Shown piece after piece: positions 15,093 to 25,509 of a stretch of DNA of 33,328 nt (position 1 is its first letter; every line of letters starts with the position of its first letter). The DNA comes from Candidatus Woesearchaeota archaeon (GTDB taxonomy: Archaea; Nanobdellota; Nanobdellia; Woesearchaeales; GW2011-AR15), in assembly GCA_038874655.1 (NCBI GenBank), contig JAVZBY010000010.1:1-33328 (forward strand), in the 5' to 3' direction. Position numbers and translations under genes: made by a program. The notes under the pieces are model-generated. The model was given only the letters and a program-made list of their open reading frames with translations. It made no database searches and was not told the DNA's origin.

Positions 15093-16571
15093 TTAATTAT
15101 ATAATAAATTATTCAATTTTTGTTTTAATTCATTAATTTTAACTCTTTCTTGTTTTGTGGTGTTTCTATCTCTTATTGTTATTGATTTATCTTCTAATGT
15201 TTCAAAGTCAATGGTAATACAATAAGGAATTCCAATTTCATCTGCCCTAGCATATCTTCTTCCAATTGAGCCAGATCTATCATAGATAGAAACAAAGTCC
15301 TTTTTTAGCATAAGATAAATTTCTAATGCTTGTTCTTCTAGTTTATTTACTAAAGGAAAAACAGCAATTTTTATTGGACTTAATTTAGGTTTAATTTTTA
15401 AAACCACATTACCCCTATCTTTATCTTCATTATATGCATCATACATTAAAGCTAAAAATGCTCTATCTACACCAAAAGAGGGTTCTATTACTTTAGGAAG
15501 GACTTTTTGTTTTGATTCTTCATCAAAGATTTCTAATGACTTTCCAGAATATTTCATATGCTGTGTTAAATCAAATTGGCCTCTGTCAGCATTTCCATGT
15601 ATTTCTTTCCAGCCAAACGGGAATTTATATTCAATGTCAAAAGTTGCAGTAGAATAATGCGATAATTCTTTTTTTAGGTGTTCCCTTATTCTAAGGTTTT
15701 CTTCTCTTATTCCTAAATCTATAAACCAAAGATAGGATTCAATTAACCAATATGCATGCCATTCTGATAATAATTTTTGTTTTATTAAATCTTTTAAAAT
15801 AACTTTTTTTTCTTCTTGTTTTTGTTCTTGGTCTTTTTCAGATAGAAATAAAAATTCTAATTCAAGATGTTTTTTAGATAATAAAGGGCATTTCTTTTCA
15901 TCTGGTTTAATAAAATATTCTAATTCCATTTGTTCAAATTCTCTTTGTCTAAATAAAAAGTTTCTTGGTGCAATTTCATTTCTAAATGCCTTTCCAATTT
16001 GTGCAATACCAAAAGGTAATTTAACTCTTGATGTTTCAATAACATTTTTAAATGCTGTAAAAATGACTTGTGCTGTTTCTCCTCTTAAATATGCTGTAGA
16101 ATCTTTATTAATATCTGCTCCAATTTGTAAAGGAAACATCAAATTAAAGGATTTGATTTCACTTAATTCTGAATTACATTCAGGGCATTTTAAATTATTG
16201 TCTTTTATTAATTTAGAGAGGGATTCTGCATTTAGTCCATCTACATTTATTTTTAATTTTTCTTCTACTAAATGATCTGCTCTAAAATGTTTATGGCATT
16301 TTTTACATTCAACTAATAAATCAGAAAAGCTTGATAAATGTCCTGAAGCTTCCCAAACTTTCTTATTTGTAATTAAAGAACCATCTATTCCTACAACATC
16401 ATCCCTATCTTGGACAAATGTTTTCCACCAATGGTTTTTTATGTTATTTTTTAGCTCAACACCTAAAGGACCATAATCATAAAAACCAGCTAAAGAACCA
16501 TAGATTTCTCCACTAGGATAAACAAAACCTTTTTTCTTGCAAAAAACTGCAAAATCATCTATTGATAACAT
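15093..16571 (-). CDS. glyS: Glycine--tRNA ligase (alpha2, archaeal/eukaryotic type)
   Basis: GFYDYGPLGVELKNNIK, VWEASGH, YLRGETAQ, QIGKAFRNEIAPR, REFEQMELEYF, VIEPSFGVDR, GSIGRRYARADEIG; RBS AAGGTGG upstream. Confidence 0.97.
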   Translation of the reverse strand: MLSIDDFAVFCKKKGFVYPSGEIYGSLAGFYDYGPLGVELKNNIKNHWWKTFVQDRDDVVGIDGSLITNKKVWEASGHLSSFSDLLVECKKCHKHFRADHLVEEKLKINVDGLNAESLSKLIKDNNLKCPECNSELSEIKSFNLMFPLQIGADINKDSTAYLRGETAQVIFTAFKNVIETSRVKLPFGIAQIGKAFRNEIAPRNFLFRQREFEQMELEYFIKPDEKKCPLLSKKHLELEFLFLSEKDQEQKQEEKKVILKDLIKQKLLSEWHAYWLIESYLWFIDLGIREENLRIREHLKKELSHYSTATFDIEYKFPFGWKEIHGNADRGQFDLTQHMKYSGKSLEIFDEESKQKVLPKVIEPSFGVDRAFLALMYDAYNEDKDRGNVVLKIKPKLSPIKIAVFPLVNKLEEQALEIYLMLKKDFVSIYDRSGSIGRRYARADEIGIPYCITIDFETLEDKSITIRDRNTTKQERVKINELKQKLNNLLYN

Positions 16572-16693
16572 AAAACCACCTTTAATTTAGTTTTAATTAT
16601 TATTAGATTCAAAGTATAGAATAAGTTTAAAGTAATAAATATTTATAAAAGTTTATATGAAATAAATCTGTTTTTACAAGTTAGTAATAAAAA

Positions 16694-16738
16694 CCGAAAG
16701 ATTTATATAGTAGTAATTATATACTACTTATTAGTAGT
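16694..16738 (+). promoter_or_regulatory. Consensus archaeal BRE-TATA promoter with overlapping inverted-repeat operator
   Basis: CCGAAA (16694-16699) + TTTATATA (16702-16709), followed by AGTAGTA-attata-TACTACT-tatt-AGTAGT. Confidence 0.7.
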
Positions 16739-16782
16739 TAAAATAAAAAAATTATAAAAATAAAGAAAAAAAGTGATGAAAA

Positions 16783-16875
16783 ATGAATTTGACTGAATTA
16801 TTAATTAATGAAAAACCTTCAGAAGAAGCAATTAAAAAAGCCAAAGAACTAGAAACTAAAGAATATTATTCATAA
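16783..16875 (+). CDS. Small ORF, 30 aa (MNLTELLINEKPSEEAIKKAKELETKEYYS), not in the ORF track
   Basis: Own consensus promoter, RBS-like GTGAT at 16773-16777, charged helix-like composition, downstream hairpin + T-tract. Confidence 0.55.
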   Translation: MNLTELLINEKPSEEAIKKAKELETKEYYS

Positions 16876-16911
16876 TCATCTTTTTCTAAAATCACCCACC
16901 CCCTCCGTGTT

Positions 16912-16940
16912 GGAGAGCTTAATGCTCTCCTAATTTTTTT
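16912..16940 (+). terminator. Hairpin + T-tract terminator between the small ORF and convergent rfcL
   Basis: GGAGAGC-ttaat-GCTCTCC followed by taa and T7. Confidence 0.6.
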
Positions 16941-16963
16941 AGGTTATTTTTATTCTTAGATGA

Positions 16964-18253
16964 TTATTTCATCAAGTATGCTATTTCTTCATTGTCTAAT
17001 TCTAAAAACTCTGCTAGTTTTTCACCTTTACCTTTTTTAAAGATTAATTTTATGTATGGGAATATTGTTTTTAATGCTTCTTTTGTTGAAGTATGTGTTT
17101 TTAGAGCTATTTTTTCTGCAATTGACTTTTTCTTAGCATTTTTTTGATTATAAATCCACTGATTTAAAATCCTAGAAGTTCTAGTATATTTAGTGAAACC
17201 AGAGTATTTTTCTTTTTTTGATAATGCAATTCCTACTGTAAGCAGATAATTTACATAAACTAAGAAATGCCAGTGTTGCCATCTAATAATTCTGCCTCTA
17301 AATACATCTGCATAACTTAAATTACTATAGGCTTTTGATAAATCTTCTATTTTTATATATTCTTTTGGTAGGTTTTCATCAACCCATAAAAATATTTCAT
17401 CTATATCCTCATCTACTTCTTCTATAGAGTTTAAAGCTATTTCTGGATCACTTGTTTTAAAGATTCTCATCAATGCATTTATCATTGATTCTGTTTGTTT
17501 TCTATCAGAAAGCACATCTAAATCTTGTTTTTTTAATTTTCGTGTATGCTCTGTTAATACTTGTAAATCTGTTATAGCGCCTCTCAAATCTCCACCAGAT
17601 CTTCTTGCAAGAGAAGACAAAACACTTTCTTCATAATCTATTTTTTCTTCATATGCTATTTTTTTTAAAATTGTCAAAATTGAGAGATAATTTAAAGAAT
17701 GAAATTCTATTAATTCTGATTTTTGTCTTAAAGTTGAGAATTTTTGATCAAATATTTCATTTGCAGTCAGTATTATTGGAAATGTGGATTTTTCAATTAA
17801 TTTCATAATTTCTGATAAGCCACCTCTATCTGATGTTCCAGAGATGCCATCTATTTCGTCAATTAGAATTATTTTTTTATTTCCAAATAAAGAAATTTGG
17901 TTTATTGCATTCCCTAACTTTTCTTTTATGGATTCTGCATCTCTAACATCAGAAGCATTTACTTCAATTAGTTCATAATTAAATTCATTTGCTATTGCAT
18001 AAACTGAACTTGTTTTTCCAGAACCAGTTGGCCCATATAATAATGCTGATTTACCTTTTTTAAAATTTTTTATAAAATTGACTAGTTTTTCTAATGCTAA
18101 ATTTTGTCCTTGAATGTCTCTAATTGATTTAGGATAATATTTTATTGTCCAAGGCAAATTCTCTATATTTTTATCATCAGATTTTTTTTTATCAACTTGT
18201 TGTGTTTTATTTTCTGTTTTATATTCTATTGCTTCTGTTTTATATTGATGCAT
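16964..18253 (-). CDS. rfcL: Replication factor C large subunit
   Basis: LPWTIKYYPKS, Walker A GPTGSGKT, IEVNASDVR, Walker B ILIDEID, GDLRGAITDLQ, WVDENLP, LSYADVFRGRI, HTS motif. Confidence 0.93.
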   Translation of the reverse strand: MHQYKTEAIEYKTENKTQQVDKKKSDDKNIENLPWTIKYYPKSIRDIQGQNLALEKLVNFIKNFKKGKSALLYGPTGSGKTSSVYAIANEFNYELIEVNASDVRDAESIKEKLGNAINQISLFGNKKIILIDEIDGISGTSDRGGLSEIMKLIEKSTFPIILTANEIFDQKFSTLRQKSELIEFHSLNYLSILTILKKIAYEEKIDYEESVLSSLARRSGGDLRGAITDLQVLTEHTRKLKKQDLDVLSDRKQTESMINALMRIFKTSDPEIALNSIEEVDEDIDEIFLWVDENLPKEYIKIEDLSKAYSNLSYADVFRGRIIRWQHWHFLVYVNYLLTVGIALSKKEKYSGFTKYTRTSRILNQWIYNQKNAKKKSIAEKIALKTHTSTKEALKTIFPYIKLIFKKGKGEKLAEFLELDNEEIAYLMK

Positions 18254-18370
18254 AATTATAAAAAAAAAGAATAGATTTATAAGAATTTTTAATTTAAATG
18301 CTTAATTTTAATCTGATGTTTTTTATTAAAAAAAGAGATAATAAAATATTAGAAATATCTATTCATATTT

Positions 18371-19060
18371 TTAAATTTTTGATGTTTTTTTACATACAAA
18401 GAAAGCATGATCAGCTTCAAAAGGATCCAATGTTCTATAATCTACAACATTAAGCTTTTTTTCTAATTCTTGCCTAATTAATGAATAAATTTCCTTTGGT
18501 TTTTTTGTAATGTCTATACTTCTAGATTTTACAGCCAATAACGCAAAACCATTTTCTTTTAAAAATAAATCACAATTTTTTAAAAAGATCTCTGCTTGAT
18601 TTCTCTGCGCAACATCCATATAAACAATATCTACTTTTGTTATTCTATGTTTGTATGTTTCTGGTTGATTTGCATCTGCTAAAATAGGAGTTATATTTTT
18701 TCTTTTTTCACATAAAAAAACTAAATCTCTAACAACTCTTGGAGCAAAGTCCAATGCAAAAATAAAACCATTTTCACCTATGATATCAGACAAAAAACTA
18801 GGAGTATATCCGTGTGAAGCACCTAAATAAAGTATTTTATTACCTTCCTTAATACCAATTTGAGAAATTTCTTTCATAAGAGCAGCTGCTAATTTACTTC
18901 TTTTTGGATCCCAATATCTATATTCATTTTGTGCTTCTCTCTCTATATTTTCATCAAAGAATTTCAACCCTGGTGTTAAATTTTTTGTAAATAATTTAAT
19001 TCTGCCTTTATTATCTTTTTTGTAATAAATGTTAGGAAATTTAGGATTGAATAATTGCAT
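18371..19060 (-). CDS. flpA: Fibrillarin-like rRNA/tRNA 2'-O-methyltransferase
   Basis: YRYWDPKRSKLAAA, ILYLGASHGYTPS.LSDI, NITPILADA, DVAQRNQ, KSRSID, LDPFEADH; RBS GGTGAT. Confidence 0.96.
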   Translation of the reverse strand: MQLFNPKFPNIYYKKDNKGRIKLFTKNLTPGLKFFDENIEREAQNEYRYWDPKRSKLAAALMKEISQIGIKEGNKILYLGASHGYTPSFLSDIIGENGFIFALDFAPRVVRDLVFLCEKRKNITPILADANQPETYKHRITKVDIVYMDVAQRNQAEIFLKNCDLFLKENGFALLAVKSRSIDITKKPKEIYSLIRQELEKKLNVVDYRTLDPFEADHAFFVCKKTSKI

Positions 19061-19117
19061 TTTATCACCATTTTATAGGATTATAAAAAGATTTTATCAT
19101 TTTTATTTTATTCTTTT

Positions 19118-20092
19118 TTAATTATTTGAAAATTTTTCTTCTAGTTCTTTTCTTAATTTATCTCCAATAAAGTTTCCTTTAAAATAATCTACTTTTGCTG
19201 CTAATAAGATTTTATCTGCTAAAGCCCTTGCTGCTTTTCCTTTTTCTTCTTTTGGTGCTTTTTGCAAGATTGGGTGTTCATGAATTATGCCATGCTTAGG
19301 TGGTTTTATGTTTTTGTTTAGCATGTGCCTAAAAAGAGCTTTTTCTGCACCTAATAATTGAACTGTTGATGAAGGCATAAATGCTAAATTTTTTAAAGAG
19401 CCTGCTAATGAAATTAATTTTGAACCAATTAAAAAACCAGCAACTTCATTTAAATTTGGGCAATTTTCTTTCATTAATTTTTGTAAATATTGTTCCTTAT
19501 TTTCTTTTTCTTCAATTAAAAGGGAAATTGTTTTTGCAAAATTAATTATTTCTGATAAATCTTCTCTTTTAAGTTCTTTACCCATTGAATTGTTTATTTT
19601 AAATTCTTCAATAAGTTCCTGCCTAGATTTTTTTAGAATTAAAGCAATAAAATCAGTATGTTCTTTTATTGTTTCTTCTATTTCTGGTAAACTATAAGAA
19701 TACCATTCACGCAATCTTTTGATTAAGATATTTATAGTTTTTGTTAATTCATCTATACTTGAAATTGTTTGAATTATAAGATTATCTGTTGAAATAGATT
19801 CCCTTATTTGTAGTTTTGTTAATTTTAAATTTAGATTGTAATAATCTTCATAAAAGTTTAATTTTTCTTTTATTTTTTCTATCGCTTTTCCATCATTTTC
19901 AAATCTTAAGCTTTTTATGTTTTTAAATTTTTCAAGAAATATTTTTTCAGATTCTAGAACCTCATTTTTTAAAAATTTTTCATTTAGTTTAAGTAATTCA
20001 TCATTCTTTAAATTAGTAAATAAGATTTTTTCTCTTATCTCAAAATTTTGATTAAAAACATATGTTCCAGTAATGTCCGAATAAAGATACAT
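19118..20092 (-). CDS. nop5: Nop5 (Nop56/58) C/D-box sRNP core protein
   Basis: LIIQ.I..IDEL.KTIN....RLREWY...PE, PNL....G..IG.KLI.LAGSL..LA.MPSSTVQLLGAEKALFRH, PPKHGII, GK.ARALA.KI..AA.VD. Start moved to ATG 20092, which has a TTTATTAA box about 30 bp upstream. Confidence 0.93.
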   Translation of the reverse strand: MYLYSDITGTYVFNQNFEIREKILFTNLKNDELLKLNEKFLKNEVLESEKIFLEKFKNIKSLRFENDGKAIEKIKEKLNFYEDYYNLNLKLTKLQIRESISTDNLIIQTISSIDELTKTINILIKRLREWYSYSLPEIEETIKEHTDFIALILKKSRQELIEEFKINNSMGKELKREDLSEIINFAKTISLLIEEKENKEQYLQKLMKENCPNLNEVAGFLIGSKLISLAGSLKNLAFMPSSTVQLLGAEKALFRHMLNKNIKPPKHGIIHEHPILQKAPKEEKGKAARALADKILLAAKVDYFKGNFIGDKLRKELEEKFSNN

Positions 20093-20233
20093 AGAGAAAT
20101 AGAAATTTAATTTTTTAATAAAGTTTTTTAATTTTTGTTTAGATTTTTTTGGAAACATGTTTTATTACAAAAATTTAAAAAATACCATAAATTATAAATA
20201 GGTGAATTTACTTTTAATTTATAGGTGATTTTT

Positions 20234-21562
20234 TTGTCAAAAAAAGAGGAAAAGAAAAATATTAATCGTAGAAATACTAATAATCTTAAAAAAAACAAAA
20301 AAGAGAATTCTAAAATAAAAATATCTAATTTAAAAAATAGTTTTAAAAAAAATATTGAAAGTAAAAAAGATCAAATTAAAAATCAAATTGTATCTAAAAA
20401 AATTAAAGCAAATACTAATATTTTAGAAGAGAAAATTTTAGAAGATAATAAATCAAATGATAAAGATCTTAACCAACAAAATCTTGAAAATAATAATAAT
20501 AATTCTAATTTTGATAATGAAGAAAATGTGGATAGTGGCAAAAATATTAATCTATTAAATAGTCAACAAGATAACTTTAATGAACAAAAACTTAAAGATG
20601 ATATATTATATTATCAAAAAAAGTTTCAAGAATTAAGGTATGAAGTTTCTAAAATTGTTGTCGGGCAAAAAGAAGTTATGGATTATTTGATAGAAGCAAT
20701 TTTGGCTAATGGTCATTGTTTAGTTGAAGGTATTCCAGGAATTGCTAAAACATTGCTTTTAAGAACTTTAGCTGTGGCAATGGGTTGTGAGTTTAAAAGA
20801 ATTCAATTTACACCTGATTTATTACCAAGTGATATTGTAGGTGTAACTGCTTATGATGAAAAAAAAGGTTTTTACACTGTTAAAGGTCCTGTTTTTGCAA
20901 ACATTGTTTTAGGTGATGAAATAAATAGAGCGCCACCAAAAGTTCAATCTGCTTTATTGGAAGCAATGCAAGAAAAACAAGTAACAATTGGAAAAAATTC
21001 TTTTCCATTGCCAAATCCTTTTTTTGTAATGGCAACTCAAAACCCTATAGAACAAATGGGTACTTATCCCTTGCCAGAAGCACAAATTGACAGATTTATT
21101 TATAAAATTATTATGAAATACCCACCAATGGAAGATGAAGAAAAAATATTAAAACAAAATATTAGCTTAAAAAGATTTGAAGACTATAATATTGTTCCTA
21201 TTTTAAAACCTGAGGAAATTGTAAAAGCTCAAGAGGATGTTAAAAAAATATATTCTGATCCAAAAATAGAGAAATATATTGTTAGAATAGTAGATGCTAC
21301 CAGAAATCCACATAAATATAATTTAGAGTTGGGTAAATATATAGAGTTTGGTAGCTCACCAAGAGCAAGCATTTCATTATATATTGCATCTAAAGCCCAT
21401 GCATTATTGAATGGAAAAATTTATGTGACACCACAAGATATTAAAGAAGTTGCGTTAAATATTTTCAGACATAGAATAATTTTAAATTATGAGGGACAAG
21501 CTGAGGATATAAAGACAGAAGATATTATAAAAGAAATCTTAGCTAAAGTGCCTGTTGTTTAA
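20234..21562 (+). CDS. moxR: MoxR-family AAA+ ATPase with long K/N-rich N-terminal extension
   Basis: GHCLVEGIPGIAKT, RIQFTPDLLPSDI.G, DEINRAPPKVQSALLEAMQE, MATQNPIEQ.GTYPLPEAQ.DRF, GSSPRAS. The GTG at 20225 lies within the RBS AGGTGAT, so TTG 20234 is the more likely start. Confidence 0.93.
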   Translation: MSKKEEKKNINRRNTNNLKKNKKENSKIKISNLKNSFKKNIESKKDQIKNQIVSKKIKANTNILEEKILEDNKSNDKDLNQQNLENNNNNSNFDNEENVDSGKNINLLNSQQDNFNEQKLKDDILYYQKKFQELRYEVSKIVVGQKEVMDYLIEAILANGHCLVEGIPGIAKTLLLRTLAVAMGCEFKRIQFTPDLLPSDIVGVTAYDEKKGFYTVKGPVFANIVLGDEINRAPPKVQSALLEAMQEKQVTIGKNSFPLPNPFFVMATQNPIEQMGTYPLPEAQIDRFIYKIIMKYPPMEDEEKILKQNISLKRFEDYNIVPILKPEEIVKAQEDVKKIYSDPKIEKYIVRIVDATRNPHKYNLELGKYIEFGSSPRASISLYIASKAHALLNGKIYVTPQDIKEVALNIFRHRIILNYEGQAEDIKTEDIIKEILAKVPVV

Positions 21563-21642
21563 ATAAAAAGAGAGATTCATAACTTTTTTACTGAATTCAT
21601 ATAAAATTGTTTCTTTATTATTCTACTAAAGAAAATGAATAT

Positions 21643-21669
21643 AAAGGGCAGTTTTACTGCCCTTTTTTT
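21643..21669. terminator. Perfect hairpin flanked by A/T tracts; probable bidirectional terminator
   Basis: AAAGGGCAGT-ttt-ACTGCCCTTT then further T's, lying between convergent genes. Confidence 0.7.
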
Positions 21670-21684
21670 CTTTTAATTTTTTGT

Positions 21685-21870
21685 CATGTGTGATGCGGTG
21701 AGCTGTTAATTAGAAAGGCTCCCTTTTTTTTCTTTGTGTGGGGAGGGGTCTTCAAGAAAAGCTTGGGAGCCTTTGAGCATGAATCCTTAAAGATTGCTAA
21801 TCTTTAAGGTTCTTGGCTCCCCTTTATGAGGGGGTGGGGTCAGAATTAGAAGGGGAGCCATGTTATCATG
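21685..21870 (-). ncRNA. Candidate structured ncRNA / 3'-UTR element with three hairpins, two bearing C-rich apical loops (strand inferred from upstream gene)
   Basis: GC-rich island with no ORF; stems 21714-21723/21765-21774, 21785-21795/21799-21809 and 21814-21824/21850-21860. No resemblance recognised to tRNA, SRP or RNase P. Confidence 0.55.
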
Positions 21871-21873
21871 AGT

Positions 21874-22281
21874 TTATTTTTTGTAATCTAAAGGTGGCTC
21901 TCTTAACTCTTGAAGCCACATTAATCCAATTTTCATCATGTTTTTGTTAAATTTATCTGATAATTTGTAAGTTTTTTTGTAAAGGTCATAATCTATTATT
22001 CCCATGGATTTCATTGGTGTTAAGATTCTATCATAAAATTGTCTTTTGTTATAGGAAATTTTTACTTTTTTACCTCTATATTCAGGTTCATCTAATTCTG
22101 TTATTAATTCACCATCATGTAATTTTGTTGCAAAAATTGACATTTCAGTTTTTCCGATTTCACCATTATTCTCTTTTAAATGCCTAACTAGTAATTTTGC
22201 TACAATAACTTGTTGTTTTGTAGCAAAGATGACTTCATAAATGTCTTCTGGTAAGTTGTATTGGTCAAATAATATAACCAT
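21874..22281 (-). CDS. Hypothetical protein, possible winged-helix-like nucleic-acid-binding fold
   Basis: 135-aa ORF; strong promoter (CGAAA-TA-TTTATATA) about 31 bp before ATG 22281; 'YNKRQFYDRILTPMKSMGIIDYDLYKKTYKLSDKF' resembles a recognition helix plus wing. Confidence 0.7.
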   Translation of the reverse strand: MVILFDQYNLPEDIYEVIFATKQQVIVAKLLVRHLKENNGEIGKTEMSIFATKLHDGELITELDEPEYRGKKVKISYNKRQFYDRILTPMKSMGIIDYDLYKKTYKLSDKFNKNMMKIGLMWLQELREPPLDYKK

Positions 22282-22304: not shown

Positions 22305-22387
22305 TATATAAATATTTCGTTTTTGTAGATTAGTATACGTTTTTGTATATTAAAAAATTAAAACAATTGAAATTAAAACAATTGTTT
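22305..22387 (-). promoter_or_regulatory. BRE-TATA promoter with two sets of direct repeats
   Basis: Minus-strand ACGAAATATTTATATA; CGTTTTTGTA at 22318-22327 and 22338-22347; AAATTAAAACAATTG at 22355-22369 and 22370-22384; palindrome AAACAATTGTTT at 22376-22387. Confidence 0.6.
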
Positions 22388-22569: not shown

Positions 22570-23532
22570 TTAAAAAAAAGAAAATCCTCTTAATTTTTTG
22601 CTATACTCATCTAAAATTTTTTTTAGATCAGTTTTAGAATTAAAAAGATTACCTAAGTTTTCATTTGTATTTATCTTAGCTACTCTAAAATTTCCTTCTA
22701 TATCAATAAATAATTCTTTATAATTAAAAAAAGGTGATAAACTTATTCCATCTTTTATTCCACCATAGATTATAACTATTGGAAGACCTCTGGAATTTTC
22801 TTTTATTCTTTTTATTGCCTGAAAATATTCTTCCTCTGATAAATTAGTCTCATCTTCTGATTTAAATTTCATAAAAAGTATATATTTTACACCCTTTTCT
22901 AACATTAATTCAATAAATTCTCTAGAAGTTAACTCATTTAAAGTTTCTTTTCTAATAGTTACTGAAGCACTATATACTTTTCTTGCTTTTCTTAAAATGT
23001 CAAATGATCTCATGAGTTTTTGAAAAGAGCCTTTACCTCTTATTTTTTCATGATTTTTTTGCATACCATCAACACTAACACAATAAGTTAAATTATGCAA
23101 ATTTGAAAGTTCAGAAAGACCATATTTTACTAAGTAATCTGGATTAACATAGATAAAAAAACTATTAAAAGGATATTTTTGAATAACCTTTTTTAAAGTA
23201 GGAATTGTAAAATCCTGCATAGGATCTCCTCCAACAATACCAGTAAATAAAATTCCATTTTTTTGTAGTTTAAGAACAATCGTTTCTAGGTTCTCTGCTG
23301 ACATTACTTCTCTATCTTTTTTTATATTATTTTCAATATAGCAACCTTTACATCTTCTATTACAATAGTAGGTTATTTCTATTCCAACTGTTGTTGGTGA
23401 CCATTCGCCTGAAATTTCCTGATAAAGTGTTTTAAATAAATGTAATAAATAGTTTTTACCTGTTATAAGAAGATCTCTTGGGTCAATTTCAGATATATAT
23501 TTAAATGAAATTCCAAAAAATTCTAATATCAT
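22570..23532 (-). CDS. Radical SAM protein of unknown function
   Basis: IEITYYCNRRCKGCY, GGDP (GGEP-like), VSVDG....HEKIRGKGSF. Start moved to ATG 23532 (TTTATATT upstream). Confidence 0.85.
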   Translation of the reverse strand: MILEFFGISFKYISEIDPRDLLITGKNYLLHLFKTLYQEISGEWSPTTVGIEITYYCNRRCKGCYIENNIKKDREVMSAENLETIVLKLQKNGILFTGIVGGDPMQDFTIPTLKKVIQKYPFNSFFIYVNPDYLVKYGLSELSNLHNLTYCVSVDGMQKNHEKIRGKGSFQKLMRSFDILRKARKVYSASVTIRKETLNELTSREFIELMLEKGVKYILFMKFKSEDETNLSEEEYFQAIKRIKENSRGLPIVIIYGGIKDGISLSPFFNYKELFIDIEGNFRVAKINTNENLGNLFNSKTDLKKILDEYSKKLRGFSFF

Positions 23533-23596
23533 GAGATAGGGAAAAAAGTAATAATATAAAAAGTTAAGTAACATTAATAGAATATTAAAAAATAAA

Positions 23597-25509
23597 TTAA
23601 TCAAAAAAATCTTTAATTATTTTTTTATAATCTGTAGTAGTTATAATCTCCCAATCCTCAGGAAAACATCTTTTATAATTTTGCCATGCATATCTTTCAT
23701 CTAAAAAGATAATAATACCTTTGTCTGTTTCTGTTCTTATGCATCTACCTGCATTTTGCAAAGTTTTATTAAATGCAGGAAATAAATATCCATAATCCCA
23801 ACCTTTTTTGAATTTTTTTTCAAAATAGTCTATTAAAGATTTTGTTTCTAAATCTGGCTGATTTAAAGGTAATCCTACAATTATAACTGCTTTTAAATAA
23901 TCTCCTGGCAAATCAATTCCCTCGCCAAAACTACCAGAAGCAACTGCTAATAAAACAGCACCTTTATCTTTATAACTTTTAAATTCTTCTAAAAAGTCTT
24001 GTTTTTCTTGTTTTGTCATATTTTGTTTTTCCTTAATTGTTATTTTTATATTATGATCTATTTTTTCATTTATTTGTTCCATAATGAAATAACTTGGAAA
24101 AAATATCGCTATATTCCCTGGAATTATTTCAATTATTTCATTTAATATTTTTGCAATATTTTTATATTGCTCTTGATTTCTGGATTCATATTTTGTTGTT
24201 GTTTTTGGTATTATCAAATTTAAACGATTTTTTTTTGGAAATGGGTCTTTAAAAATTAGTTCATTGCAATTTTCTAATCCTAAAAGCTCTTTATACATAT
24301 ATGTTGGCAATAAAGTTCCAGACATTAAGATTGTTGAATATGTGTTATTGATAATGTCTCTTGAAACAACACTTGGATCTAGACATCTGTAAGATAATTG
24401 TGTATATGTTTCTTGATTATCTAATTCTTTATAGAAATAATTCTAACAAAACCCTCATCTTGGCCTTGCCATATTCTTAAAAAACGAGCAATTGAACCAA
24501 TGTAAGATTGTTTTTGTAATTCTCTAATTGAATCTGCAATAAATTCTAAATCTTCTATTAATTGATCATAATCATACTTCTCCAAAAGAGGTTGCATAAA
24601 TTCATTTTTAGAAACAATTTTTTCTTGATTAATTTGCATTTTTTCTGTTAAATTAGTTAAAGAAGACATAATATCATTTAAAGATTCTATTGTTGAATCA
24701 TAACCAAATCTTTTTGCTTCTTTTATAGCTCTTTTTATAGTTATACTTGATAAATACTCTGAAGCTAAATCCTTTAATCTATAAGGCAAATTATGTGCTT
24801 CATCTACAATAACAATTAATTTTTCTATTTCTCTTCCAATTTTTTGTAAGAAGTTATCTCCTATTTCTGGATTAAATAAATAATAATAATCAGCAATTAT
24901 TACTTTAGCATTTTTTGCAATTCCTAATGATATTTCATAAGGGCACATTAATTCTGTTTTTGAATAATTAATTATTTCTTCTGTTGTTAATGGATTTTTT
25001 GATAGAGTTGATATTAAAGAAGATGCTTTCATAGTAAATTGTGTTTGTGTTTTTCTTGTGTTGATATAAAAATCACACTTTTTTTCTTCTCTCATTTTTT
25101 TGCAAAATGTTATAAAATCTGAGCTATACATTTTATCTGAGCCAGAAATAAGACACATCCATTTTTTTCCAATTATTGAAGAAACTGAAAAATCTAAATT
25201 AAATTTTTCTTTAATTGATTTTAGAGTATCTATTGCAATTTTATGTTGTGTATGCCTAGATGTTAAAAATAAGATAGTCAAATCTTTTTTTAAAGCATAT
25301 GATAAAGCAGGACTTAATGTTGCTACTGTTTTTCCTAATCCTGTTGGAGCATGTATTATTAAATTTTTTTTATATAAAAGCGCATTTTCTACATTCAATA
25401 AAAGTTTATTTTGTTCTTCTCTTATATTCTTATAAGGAAAAAAGAGACGATTTTTTATTATATCTAAATCTTGTAAGCTGTTATTTTCCTCAGAAGAAAT
25501 TTTAGGCAT
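23597..25509 (-). pseudogene. xpd: XPD/Rad3-family Fe-S DNA helicase interrupted by one -1 frameshift at about 24421-24442 (true lesion, recoding or sequence error)
   Basis: N-part: Q motif REEQ, APTGLGKT, four Fe-S Cys (WMC, FC, KCDFY, MCPYE), ADYYYLF, DEAHNL. The -1 frame continues KELDNQETYTQLSYRCLDPS...STILMSGTLLP, FFPSY, GSFGEGID, IVGLP, QNAGRCIR, LDERY. The joined product is about 637 aa. Confidence 0.88.

Follow-up and report, generated by a model that had tools for sequence, protein, structure and literature searches.

Two conserved small RNAs with C-rich loops in Woesearchaeota-like archaea and their candidate ribosome-binding-site targets

The stretch of DNA analyzed here (the window; 33,328 nucleotides of a Candidatus Woesearchaeota archaeon) contains two strongly promoted transcription units, each carrying a C-rich motif at its 3' end in sense orientation, as an earlier note made from the sequence had claimed. 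The plus-strand unit, RNA2 (about 16735-16940), is predicted to be a short transcript (~200 nt) with a strong promoter and a 30-codon open reading frame (ORF; MNLTELLINEKPSEEAIKKAKELETKEYYS, 16783..16875) preceded by the Shine-Dalgarno (SD) sequence GUGAUGA (16774-16780). On the minus strand, a leaderless gene for a 135-amino-acid winged-helix protein, the type 1 paralogue (21874..22281), is followed 14 nt past its stop codon by RNA1, a structured, noncoding three-hairpin RNA (about 21714-21872). No Pfam family was found for the winged-helix protein, which is highly conserved among metagenome proteins labeled Woesearchaeota or Nanoarchaeota.

The BRE/TATA promoter of the winged-helix gene and RNA1 (CGAAATATTTATATA; 22305..22319, minus strand) has a TATA box that ends 23 nt before the ATG, a spacing kept in 14/14 family and 19/20 order-level RNA-linked orthologues. 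Upstream lie repeats that may serve as operators (22320..22384, minus strand): direct repeats CGTTTTTGTA[G/T]ATTA, present twice at 22318-22352 and containing GTATAC/GTATAT boxes, and two tandem copies of AAATTAAAACAATTG at 22355-22384. The promoter of RNA2, CCGAAAGATTTATATA, is followed by the inverted repeat GTAGTAATTATATACTAC (16695..16728, plus strand), whose arms GTAGTA..TACTAC at 16711-16728 were spotted by eye, so that operator-like repeats do accompany both promoters as proposed. Promoter and inverted repeat are identical in G001; in G002, G005, G007, G010, G011, and G014 the promoter is conserved and the inverted repeat is not. The two promoters had also been called near-identical, and the sequence match is real: CGAAA[G/T]ATTTATATA occurs three times in the genome, twice in the window (16695, plus; 22319, minus). 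The similarity is, however, that of the clade's consensus BRE/TATA, the relaxed form AAA..TTTATATA having 74 genomic occurrences. The RNA1 promoter is part of a conserved cassette that includes ATATAC-N-GTATAC boxes, found upstream of type 1 genes and of stand-alone RNA1 genes, whereas the RNA2 promoter lacks these boxes.

RNA1 folds into three hairpins: the outer two have GGCUCCC/GGGAGCC stems and C-rich loops, and a third lies between them. From its 5' end on the minus strand, a conserved single-stranded flank (CUCAUGAUAACAU; 21860..21872) is followed by hairpin A (GGCUCCCCUU, 25-nt loop CUAAUUCUGACCCCACCCCCUCAUA, AAGGGGAGCC; 21815..21859), hairpin B (CCUUAAAGAUU AGC AAUCUUUAAGG; 21785..21809), a flank-like UCAUGCUCAAA (21775-21785), and hairpin C (AAAGGCUCCC [..UUUCUU GAAGACCCCUCCCCACAC AAAGAAA..] GGGAGCCUUU; 21714..21774); among relatives, the flanks are conserved as (U)GAUAA / UCAUAYUCAA. 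Hairpin A holds the C-rich 11-mer discussed below (21828-21838) and scores 42.7 bits with our model R1, and hairpin C holds a further C-rich variant, CCCCTCCCCAC (21738-21748), which the earlier note had correctly placed near 21738, and scores 66.4 bits. The sequence ACCCCUCCCC of hairpin C is nearly invariant across the family, and RNAalifold predicts a 9-bp stem there with double changes at three pairs, while the stem of hairpin B has compensatory variants in relatives (UUAAGGA/UCCUUAA, UUGAAGA/UCUUCAA, and UUAAUGAGC/GCUCAUUAA). A possible 3' tail (AGCUCACCGCAUCA; 21640..21713, minus strand) is conserved in G001, and in relatives a U/C-rich tract lies directly 3' of hairpin C. GC hairpins had been expected at the ends of both units and are present, at 16912-16940 with a U-run and at 21646-21662 (GGGCAGT/ACTGCCC); since the latter has its U7 run on the plus strand, it is more likely the terminator of moxR.

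Several lines of evidence show that RNA1 is a real, structured RNA. Its fold is more stable on the minus strand (z = -5.27) than on the plus strand (-3.38), and its GC content is 42% versus ~25% for the genome. Across 33 aligned hairpins, 93.9% of cells pair, with double changes at 6 of 7 pairs; this level was reached by 0 of 500 shuffles, and slid controls gave 40 to 70%. Seven U.G pairs at a single stem position fit the C-rich strand only. In a cmscan of the locus against 4,227 Rfam families, no match reached the gathering score and those at E <= 10 were no better than chance, and identification of RNA1 as an Rfam family, signal recognition particle RNA, or RNase P RNA was rejected.

Model R1 found RNA1 in 18 of 20 family genomes, with exactly two adjacent matches in 14; across the order, 34 of 151 genomes were positive. 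A winged-helix ORF lies directly upstream in 14 of the 18 RNA-positive family genomes and at 19 of 28 order-level loci. RNA1 is nevertheless independent of this ORF, because G010, G019, G004, and G008 keep it behind the same promoter and boxes without a type 1 ORF; stand-alone RNA1 also occurs in G108 and G143. The linkage across so many families is among the points in favor of an alternative that we consider unlikely but would weigh seriously, namely, that the hairpins are protein-binding sites and not base-pairing RNAs. The C-rich loops with their conserved AAUUCU and the flanking UCAUAYUCAA would then be recognized either by the winged-helix protein encoded upstream, which might regulate its own gene at the 3' end or form an RNP, or by an RNA-binding protein of general function (an Sm-like protein or a poly(C) binder with KH domains, for example). 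RNA hairpins are among the ligands that winged-helix folds can bind, the winged-helix model is confident (pLDDT, 90.5), loop and flank parts that SD pairing does not require are conserved, and RNA1 and RNA2 share a module of AAUUCU and a C-tract despite different stems. Against this, the modeled fold matches a generic winged helix (Z, ~8; mostly DNA binders), palindromic GTATAC boxes at the promoters of both paralogues (types 1 and 2) suggest a DNA-binding regulator, and RNA1 persists in the four genomes that have no type 1 ORF, although these still contain a type 2 copy. Protein binding would also leave unexplained that RNA2 is complementary over 10 nt, uniquely, to an S-layer ribosome-binding site (RBS), described below.

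The effector element of RNA2 (UUUCUAAAAUCACC plus a mini-hairpin; 16884..16911, plus strand) includes the 11-mer at 16895-16905. The mini-hairpin is formed by CAC (16897-16899), the loop CCCCUCC (16900-16906), and GUG (16907-16909), and it overlaps the anti-RBS 10-mer CCUCCGUGUU (16902-16911); the terminator, GGAGAGC UUAAU GCUCUCC UAAUUUUUUU, follows at 16912..16940. The conserved order of the 3' elements is UUCU, C-rich tract, and CCUCCGUGUU, directly before the terminator, and most of the family has a homologous terminator hairpin, GUGGAGAG..CUCUCCAC, with a large loop, AAUUCUU..CAACCCACCCAUCACCCC. The RNA2 small ORF and/or the 3' elements were found in 10 genomes from 7 of 9 family genera; a conserved CCUCCGUG(U/C)U or CCUCUGUGUU likewise occurs in 10 genomes, which represent 7 genera. 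Homologous ORFs of ~30 codons, ending in EEYY(N/S) and differing by synonymous changes, occur in G001, G002, G005, G007, G010, and G014; G011, and likewise G088, keeps the RNA2 elements without the small ORF.

Both RNAs lie at the 3' ends of units with U-rich tracts after them, the C-rich tract of RNA2 is within or adjoins its terminator hairpin, and RNA1 closely follows a stop codon in the window. Such positions would suit cis-acting terminator or stabilizer hairpins of two highly expressed mRNAs that guard against 3' exonucleases or set the 3' ends, the C-rich loops being either incidental or recognized by the machinery of termination and processing. We give this explanation a slim chance: the stand-alone RNA1 genes and the ORF-less RNA2 genes have their own promoters and no mRNA to protect, the loop conservation exceeds what a terminator needs, three hairpins including a conserved middle one go beyond a terminator, and no other genes of the genome carry such elements. 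The 3'-UTR element of the earlier note stands as to its position at the ends of units but not as to its nature, since the copies at 21.7 kb are loops of an ~160-nt structured RNA that is a stand-alone gene in four relatives. A dispersed genome-wide family of 3'-UTR elements did not materialize either, the genome search having found no further copies of RNA1 or RNA2, each of which is single copy.

The 11-mer CCCACCCCCTC is indeed shared exactly by the two loci (16895-16905, plus; 21828-21838, minus), and none of 100 dinucleotide shuffles gave even one exact copy; with up to two mismatches, a weaker test, two matches were observed against an expectation of 0.54, and two were also reached in 11 of 100 shuffles. 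Only nine stretches in the 1.26-Mb genome have at least 9 C per 11 bases. Three are the window copies, and the other six are otherwise explained, as complements of ribosome-binding sites (C2:52237 and C11:27029), a tRNA (C8:23911), a site in 23S rRNA (C13:287), and an hsdS-like coding repeat present in two copies, each at a contig end (C3:279 and C6:56227). The possibility that the G-rich strand provides the RBS of real genes was rejected at the three window sites, where just 3- to 14-codon frames lie downstream. Orthologues do not keep the exact 11-mer (CACCCACCCUCC in G001; CACCCUCC in G002), and the two RNAs have unrelated stems (GGCUCCC in RNA1 versus GGAGAG in RNA2), as would be expected if two low-complexity tracts with no common function resembled each other by chance. 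The exact identity is indeed partly a coincidence of low-complexity loops. As a full account, however, chance is scarcely credible given the shuffles and the genome-wide rarity of such stretches, and what is shared and conserved, across genera at both loci, is a loop module of (A)AUUCU, a short spacer, and a C-rich tract. RNA1 and RNA2 are undescribed conserved small-RNA elements of Woesearchaeota-like archaea, which bears out the suspicion of novelty in the earlier note.

We favor, with evenly balanced confidence, the reading that RNA1 and RNA2 are a pair of trans-acting, anti-SD-like small RNAs whose C-rich loops are left unpaired. These loops might pair in trans with G-rich ribosome-binding sites and thereby block or tune translation initiation of chosen mRNAs. 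An element controlling stability or translation, or a source of anti-SD small RNAs, had been proposed; the latter is the best supported, and a plain 3'-UTR family is not. No 16S rRNA was found in the window's own assembly; in two relatives its 3' end is GGAUCACCUCCU, and against this sequence the copy at 16891 does contain both anti-SD halves. AUCACC and CCUC are kept by RNA2 in six genomes (G000, G001, G002, G005, G007, and G011), and the strong promoters suggest abundance, which might also fit decoys of the 16S 3' end that would titrate not mRNAs but a factor binding AUCACCUCC, for example, one for initiation or for maturation of the small subunit. Such a factor would be hypothetical, modeled on KH-domain proteins that bind the 16S 3' end; moreover, order-level RNA1 loops, mostly CCACCCCCCAC, lack both AUCACC and the U of CCUCC, and the RNA2 loops of G010 and G014 read CCAACCCC only. 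We therefore judge decoys to be very improbable. The SD consensus in this genome is GGAGGUGA, and the CCACCCCCCAC-type loops fit G-runs better than a canonical SD. Complementarity to SD sequences is in itself a compositional property of any C-rich loop.

The complementarity to the moxR RBS on which the earlier note drew is real but not special, as GGTGATTTT occurs 39 times in the genome, and an S-layer-like gene on another contig appears to be the better candidate target of RNA2. Outside the RNA2 site itself, the only complement of the 10-mer CCUCCGUGUU in the genome is the RBS hairpin of this gene (stem AACAC/GUGUU, loop GGAG), and AACACGGAGG occurs twice versus 0.17 expected, at this RBS (C2:209572) and antisense to RNA2. 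The RNA2 mini-hairpin mirrors the hairpin UAACAC-GGAG-GUGUUA, so the CCUCC and GGAGG loops might kiss, followed by stem exchange. For 5 of 6 genomes, the predicted duplexes have energies between -17.6 and -22.7 kcal/mol, and no more than 1 in 500 shuffled targets does as well; RNA2 changes in relatives (an extra C; C to U giving G.U) preserve the pairing. Raw duplex energies place the S-layer RBS about 254th among 207,132 overlapping windows for RNA2, which is not a top rank. Of 18 orthologue rows, 15 have AACACGGAGGUGUU as the RBS, differing sequences including AACAUGGAGG, AUACGGAGG, and GCACGGAGGUGC, and compensatory covariation between RNA2 and target is absent because the RBS hardly varies; RNA2 was not found in the two genomes with a variant RBS (G008 and G015).

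For RNA1, the candidate targets would be the rare G-rich SDs GGGAGGGG, GGGUGGGG, and GGGGGU, which are found chiefly on genes for envelope proteins and on the second, SD-led winged-helix copy. An N-terminal hydrophobic segment is encoded by 13 of 20 G-rich-SD genes, compared with 133 of the 540 remaining SD-led ORFs; this comparison is crude and post hoc (Fisher p = 2e-4). All 16 type 2 paralogues have a G5-6 SD and all 14 type 1 genes are leaderless; the leaderless copy carrying RNA1, cotranscribed behind it or made alone from the same promoter/operator in four genomes, might escape RNA1 action. By raw duplex energy, the type 2 initiation region is 914th of 4,949 for RNA1, whose best-scoring partners include 5' ends of tRNAs and sites within coding sequence. 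SD pairing leaves the conserved loop part (A)AUUCU and 5' flank UCAUAYUCAA unaccounted for, and the close linkage of RNA1 to one protein gene might instead reflect binding of RNA1 by that protein. None of the RNA runs searched contains the RNA1/RNA2 locus; its DNA is present in hot-spring metagenomes.

Small RNAs with unpaired C-rich loops are familiar from bacteria. The cuckoo RNAs (CcsR/alpha-r14) of Alphaproteobacteria have C-rich loops, and RoxS/RsaE and IsrR, among others, of Bacillota are described as pairing through C-rich regions with G-rich SD regions. These RNAs share with RNA1 and RNA2 unpaired C-rich loops directed at the SD regions of several mRNAs, the presence of more than one hairpin of similar type in each RNA, and strong promoters; there is, however, no sequence or structure homology (cmscan, 4,227 Rfam families), the host here is a DPANN-like archaeon, the loops have an extra conserved AAUUCU, RNA1 in most cases forms the 3' portion of a leaderless mRNA, and the targets are candidates. 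In CopA/CopT-type antisense control, kissing hairpins initiate pairing loop to loop, much as the RNA2 mini-hairpin, with its CAC/GUG or ACAC/GUGU stem and C(C)UCC loop, mirrors the S-layer RBS hairpin, but the candidate partners here are unlinked (trans-encoded) and complementary over just 10 to 15 nt. High-GC noncoding RNAs of AT-rich thermophilic archaea are detectable by GC contrast, and the 42 to 55% GC island in an ~25% GC genome resembles them; this is a detection principle and not a family, and no Rfam family from those screens matches. Closer in domain, sRNA41 of Methanosarcina mazei is described as a trans-acting archaeal RNA proposed to mask ribosome-binding sites, internal ones of polycistronic ACDS mRNAs, and repress translation (PMC5867862). 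Masking of ribosome-binding sites is proposed for both, but sRNA41, compared here by description and not by sequence, belongs to another phylum, and the available text mentions no link to a gene comparable to that of RNA1 in its winged-helix cassette (PMC5867862). As described for FimR2, a bacterial small RNA derived from a 3' UTR, a regulatory RNA can lie in the 3' end of a coding transcript with a terminator in common; RNA1 differs from this type in its archaeal host and in being also an independent gene in relatives.

Two conserved, single-copy RNA elements are encoded on the C-rich strand at the two loci that share the C-rich motif. Structure and unpaired anti-SD-like loops are conserved in both, and both have strong promoters. 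RNA1 is a three-hairpin element (~21714-21872, minus strand) located 3' of a leaderless gene for a 135-aa winged-helix protein ("type 1"), and RNA2 is a predicted transcript (~16735-16940, plus strand) with a 30-codon ORF and a C-rich 3' element. The assembly (1.26 Mb, 24.5% GC), of which the window is contig C10, is archaeal, and homologues of the window's proteins carry the source labels Woesearchaeota or Nanoarchaeota. The observation that an earlier note had made from the DNA alone, a C-rich 11-mer common to two loci, was confirmed: CCCACCCCCTC occurs exactly at 16895-16905 (+) and 21828-21838 (-), with 0 copies in 100 dinucleotide shuffles; the weaker test with 2 mismatches found 2 copies where 0.54 were expected, a number reached by 11 of 100 shuffles. 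The third C-rich variant, CCCCTCCCCAC, is at 21738-21748 (-). Only 9 stretches of the whole genome have at least 9 C in 11 bases, and these three are among them; of the remaining 6, two complement an RBS, one each falls in a tRNA and in 23S rRNA, and two belong to a duplicated hsdS-like coding repeat. The duplicate is an identical stretch of 112 bp containing CCCCTCCCACC at two contig ends (C3:1-700 and C6:55900-56312), and it resembles the central, conserved part of an hsdS gene (type I restriction S subunit) with internal repeats.

The promoter 15-mer CGAAA[G/T]ATTTATATA has 3 copies in the genome, 2 of them in the window; repeats adjoin both promoters, and GC hairpins are found at both 3' ends, as had been described. 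AUCACC and CCUCC are indeed the two halves of the anti-SD, because the 16S 3' end of two relatives is GGAUCACCUCCU; the Shine-Dalgarno consensus of the genome is GGAGGUGA. In the related genome G001, the sole SSU rRNA match (G001:C29:8-1222), with a low score of 420 bits, ends in GGAUGAAAAUAG rather than GGAUCACCUCCU and could represent contamination, or else a gene that is truncated or highly divergent. The inference of anti-SD sRNAs fared less evenly than the observation and is supported in part. The RBS of moxR is not distinctive as a target, since GGTGATTTT is present 39 times, and the exact 11-mer is lost in orthologues of the RNAs. A search of 301 genomes of the order for the exact 11-mer ACCCCTCCCCA gave matches in 72, mostly coding, of which only the one in G061 was informative; its control was void because the pattern is identical when read backwards. 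The G-rich strand as the RBS of small genes was rejected, just 3-14-codon frames being present downstream. The neighbours of the C-rich loci in 15093-21562 are ordinary housekeeping genes, encoding a class II aminoacyl-tRNA synthetase (15093-16571, -), an RFC-like AAA+ ATPase (16964-18253, -), fibrillarin (18371-19060, -), Nop5 (19118-20158, -), and a MoxR ATPase (20225-21562, +); a radical SAM protein is encoded at 22570-23604 (-).

The C-rich strand of 21660-21880 (-) is predicted to form three hairpins at -58.4 kcal/mol (z = -5.27, against -3.38 for the plus strand), and the RNA1 stretch has 42% GC. Hairpin A consists of GGCUCCCCUU, a 25-nt loop containing CCCCACCCCCUC, and AAGGGGAGCC; hairpin B has the stem CCUUAAAGAUU/AAUCUUUAAGG; hairpin C runs from AAAGGCUCCC to GGGAGCCUUU, with a loop in which an inner UUUCUU/AAAGAAA stem presents GACCCCUCCCCACAC. 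The C-rich tracts CCCCACCCCCUC and CCCCUCCCC fall in hairpin loops of the predicted folds, and the stems are backed by covariation: among 33 hairpins taken from 19 loci, pairing holds in 93.9% of cells and double changes occur at 6 of the 7 stem pairs (GGCACCC/GGGUGCC, GGCUCUC/GAGAGCC, and GGCCCCC/GGGGGCC), a count from a model-fitted alignment (A5) that is biased towards the model's own structure. A5 was preferred to the MAFFT alignments A3 and A7, in which the 3' stems were placed wrongly; an initial model-based alignment (A4) contained reverse-strand matches and was excluded. The pairing values were matched by 0 of 500 shuffles, and in slid controls the proportion that pairs falls to 40-70%. 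One stem position has seven U.G pairs, which are compatible with the C-rich strand only, and hairpin B shows compensated variation too. The loops conserve (A)AUUCU or UUUCUU, followed by a short spacer and ACCCC[A/U]CCCC, the usual loop at the order level being AACCACCCCCCAC; each hairpin is preceded by a single-stranded UCAU(A/G)YUCAA or (U)GAUAA flank. In G001 (G001:C60, ~1600-1690), the stretch joining hairpin B to hairpin C contains about 6 tandem copies of an 11-nt ATAAAATTAAG-like unit; this linker evidently tolerates insertions. Hairpin number varies by duplication, loci L065 (G009:C3) and L066 (G003:C275) having three or four C-rich-loop hairpins in tandem where two are usual.

BLAST matched the RNA1 region in congeners and two other genera. 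R1, a covariance model of the single hairpin, matched 18 of 20 genomes of the family (exactly two adjacent matches in 14, one in 4, none in 2) and, at E up to 0.001 with stricter filters, 34 of 151 sampled genomes of the order, the positives including G150, which is flagged as unpublished. In the genome of the window R1 finds the two RNA1 hairpins only; the 16.9-kb site is not a member. At six loci from several other families (L089, L095, L102, L107, L111, and L112), a conserved (G)GGAAAAAGAGGUGA lies ~30 nt or less 3' of the RNA1 hairpin; it is apparently the SD of the downstream gene, and the hairpin therefore stands between two genes in those lineages.

The ORF upstream of RNA1 starts at ATG 22281 and has no Pfam family; its 135-aa product has 4,185 close homologues, which fall into only 77 clusters at 50% identity, and is modeled confidently as a winged helix (pLDDT 90.5), with generic structural matches (Z ~8). 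Its identification as eS19 was rejected, there being no Pfam hit (PF01090) and only weak eS19 rows in Foldseek (E 0.05-0.3); the canonical S19e gene is elsewhere (C13:6472-6885). The mRNA of the 135-aa gene should be leaderless, because the TATA box ends 23 nt before the ATG, and this spacing recurs in the orthologues adjoining RNA1, in all 14 from the family and in 19 of 20 at the order level. All RNA1-linked orthologues with that spacing, in family and order, have ATATAC-N-GTATAC boxes upstream, and palindromic ATATAC-N6-7-GTATAC boxes are conserved 5' of the type-1 promoter across many families (22320-22384 in the window). A DNA-binding regulator, which may be the winged-helix protein itself, likely uses the boxes as its operator. 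A second paralogue ("type 2"; C1:41381-41788 in the genome of the window, 76% identity) is present in most family genomes; it has no RNA downstream, its Shine-Dalgarno is of the G5-6 kind (UUCGGGGGU) in 16 of 16 cases, and GTATAC boxes overlie its start site. In the genome of the window (C1:41300-41790), another GGGGGU is found 44 nt upstream.

RNA1 is independent of its host ORF in some genomes, as RNA2 is of its small ORF. Among 28 order-level RNA1 loci inspected, the ORF is directly upstream in 19, downstream in 1, and absent within 3 kb in 8. RNA1 stands alone in G010, G019, G004, and G008, where the type-1 promoter and boxes are kept and the only protein gene is of type 2; because these four genomes keep RNA1 and its promoter without the type-1 gene, RNA1 is probably functional without its usual ORF. 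Putative stand-alone genes with the consensus promoter are found in 4 family genomes and several order genomes.

RNA2 has a predicted start at ~16735, from the consensus promoter at 16695 (+), and its U-run ends at ~16940. The peptide of the 30-codon ORF, M.L..L...EKP.EEA.KKAEE...EEYY[NS], is kept in G001, G002, G005, G007, G010, and G014; in G011 the RNA2 elements are present and the ORF is gone. The first conserved 3' element is a mini-hairpin, CAC-C(C)UCC-GUG, with the stem variants ACAC/GUGU or GCAC/GUGC; in the predicted fold the 11-mer makes up the stem CAC and the loop CCCCUCC. The second is a terminator hairpin, GUGGAGAG..CUCUCCAC, with a large loop AAUUCUU..CAACCCACCCAUCACCCC. The order-level draw yielded this hairpin in each of the 4 other family genomes and in a single genome from a different family; a sixth match was a tRNA-like false positive. 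G006 and G009 have CUUCUAA..C-rich..CCUCCGUGUU in the loop of a GGAGAG/CUCUCC hairpin; the window and G001 have a short terminator, GGAGAGC UUAAU GCUCUCC, and UUUCUAAAAUCACC 5' of the mini-hairpin. Comparison of the conserved loops shows that RNA1 and RNA2 have a common loop module (AAUUCU/UUUCU, spacer, C-tract) but unlike stems.

At the gathering score, Rfam gave 0 matches over the whole window to RsaE/RoxS, cuckoo, or any other curated RNA, and at E up to 10 it gave sub-threshold terminator-like matches only; ARAGORN found no tRNA or tmRNA. Archaeal SRP RNA (RF01857) and RNase P RNA (RF00373) were rejected, as both are encoded elsewhere (C3:91721-91994 and C1:100659-100963). Box C/D sRNAs, which carry guide regions and a K-turn formed by a C box RUGAUGA and a D box CUGA, were rejected as well: a 5' flank resembling UGAUAA/UGAUGA is frequent here, yet the 3' D box is unconserved, with CUGA in some loops only, and Rfam snoRNA matches reach 14-19 bits against cut-offs of 35-55. 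A hairpin with a U/C-rich tract, as expected of an intrinsic terminator or 3'-UTR stabilizer, is present; the loops, however, keep their sequence across families, and elements without an mRNA exist as well. The predicted folds also have unpaired C-rich tracts in hairpin loops or beside the terminator, as in trans-acting sRNAs of the C-rich, anti-SD class. Sequencing runs containing the locus were DNA runs of hot-spring metagenomes, with no RNA run among those listed.

The RNA2 10-mer CCUCCGUGUU (16902-16911) has one genomic complement, AACACGGAGG at C2:209572 (0.17 expected), the sole other copy of AACACGGAGG being RNA2's own antisense. This complement is the RBS of a gene whose 780-aa product has a signal peptide and looks S-layer-like from its N-terminal sequence. 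The S-layer-like gene has a 5' leader of ~115 nt (region C2:209475-209620) with the SD in a hairpin loop. The RBS hairpin, UAACAC-GGAG-GUGUUA, reads AACACGGAGGUGUU in 15 of 18 orthologue rows (17 genomes) and, RNA2 aside, would itself be a candidate for translational control. The RNA2 mini-hairpin is its mirror image. In 5 of 6 genomes, the duplexes predicted between the two have energies from -17.6 to -22.7 kcal/mol, equaled by at most 1 in 500 shuffled targets; in the sixth, G007, the duplex window missed the mini-hairpin, and by eye there is a 10-bp complement. By raw energy, the site ranks ~254th of 207,132 overlapping windows in the genome of the window, and the invariant RBS offers no compensatory changes with RNA2. 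Variant RBSs occur in G008 (AUACGGAGG), G015 (AACAUGGAGG), and the second copy in G009 (GCACGGAGGUGC); RNA2 was searched for in G008 and G015 and not found. A glycosyltransferase-like gene is preceded by a 31-codon ORF (MGGFLETC...; C12:5180-5230, -) with another RNA2 complement at its start: the opening codons of the ORF, AUGGGUGGGUUUUUAGAAA, agree with the complement of UUUCUAAAAUCACCCACCC in RNA2 at 17 of 19 positions (-26.5 kcal/mol), RNA2 UUUCUAAAA..CACCCACCC being the 17-of-19 complement at C12:5205.

The RNA1 loops are predicted to complement rare G-rich SDs. RNAduplex ranking for RNA1 singled out no outstanding mRNA, the top sites being its own antisense, tRNA 5' ends, and mixed G-rich RBSs, and the initiation region of the type-2 paralogue ranked 914 of 4,949. 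Genes with GGG[A/U]GGG-type SDs encode an N-terminal hydrophobic segment in 13 of 20 cases, against 133 of 540 among the other SD-led ORFs (Fisher p = 2e-4), in a test that is crude and post hoc, with some spurious internal ORFs in both gene sets. The pattern GGRGGGG..ATG exceeds its reversed control in most genomes of the family, with too many matches for orthologous targets to be identified.

Both RNAs, we propose, pair in trans with G-rich ribosome-binding sites: RNA2 would target the S-layer-like gene by a kissing interaction with its mirror hairpin, and RNA1 would target G-rich SDs, that of the type-2 paralogue included. The two RNAs might instead bind proteins, an explanation that we keep alive: the conserved AAUUCU, the 5' flanks, and the tie of RNA1 to the winged-helix gene are unexplained by pairing, the interaction for which the RNA2 complement at the S-layer RBS speaks. 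Extended to its limit, trans pairing would yield an order-wide, DPANN-type posttranscriptional circuit, which we consider rather improbable: sibling sRNAs mimicking the anti-SD would selectively silence SD-led envelope genes and the SD-led winged-helix paralogue, the leaderless copy that carries the sRNA would be immune, and one operator would serve a switch between leaderless and SD-led genes. The S-layer gene would be hit via its mirror-image RBS hairpin, and the rare genes with G-rich SDs would also be shut down.

RNA1 and RNA2 represent two RNA families, of which one extends across many families of an order. Each is clearly structured and keeps its gene context, and RNA2 adds a candidate target, the RBS hairpin of the S-layer-like gene. 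If pairing is real, envelope synthesis, which is central to episymbiotic cells, would be tied to riboregulation. Should the proposed mechanism prove wrong, thousands of metagenomic genomes could still be annotated with the help of the covariance model and of the cassette (GTATAC boxes, consensus promoter, leaderless winged-helix gene, and RNA). The titles and partial abstracts of the literature on DPANN or Woesearchaeota regulatory RNA contained nothing relevant, and the two RNAs belong to none of the curated families of Rfam. Real pairing would make this one of few archaeal cases of RBS masking by a trans-acting sRNA, for which sRNA41 is reported as an archaeal precedent (PMC5867862). RNA1 and RNA2 would work like sRNAs with C-rich anti-SD loops, their bacterial analogues being the sRNAs with C-rich regions.
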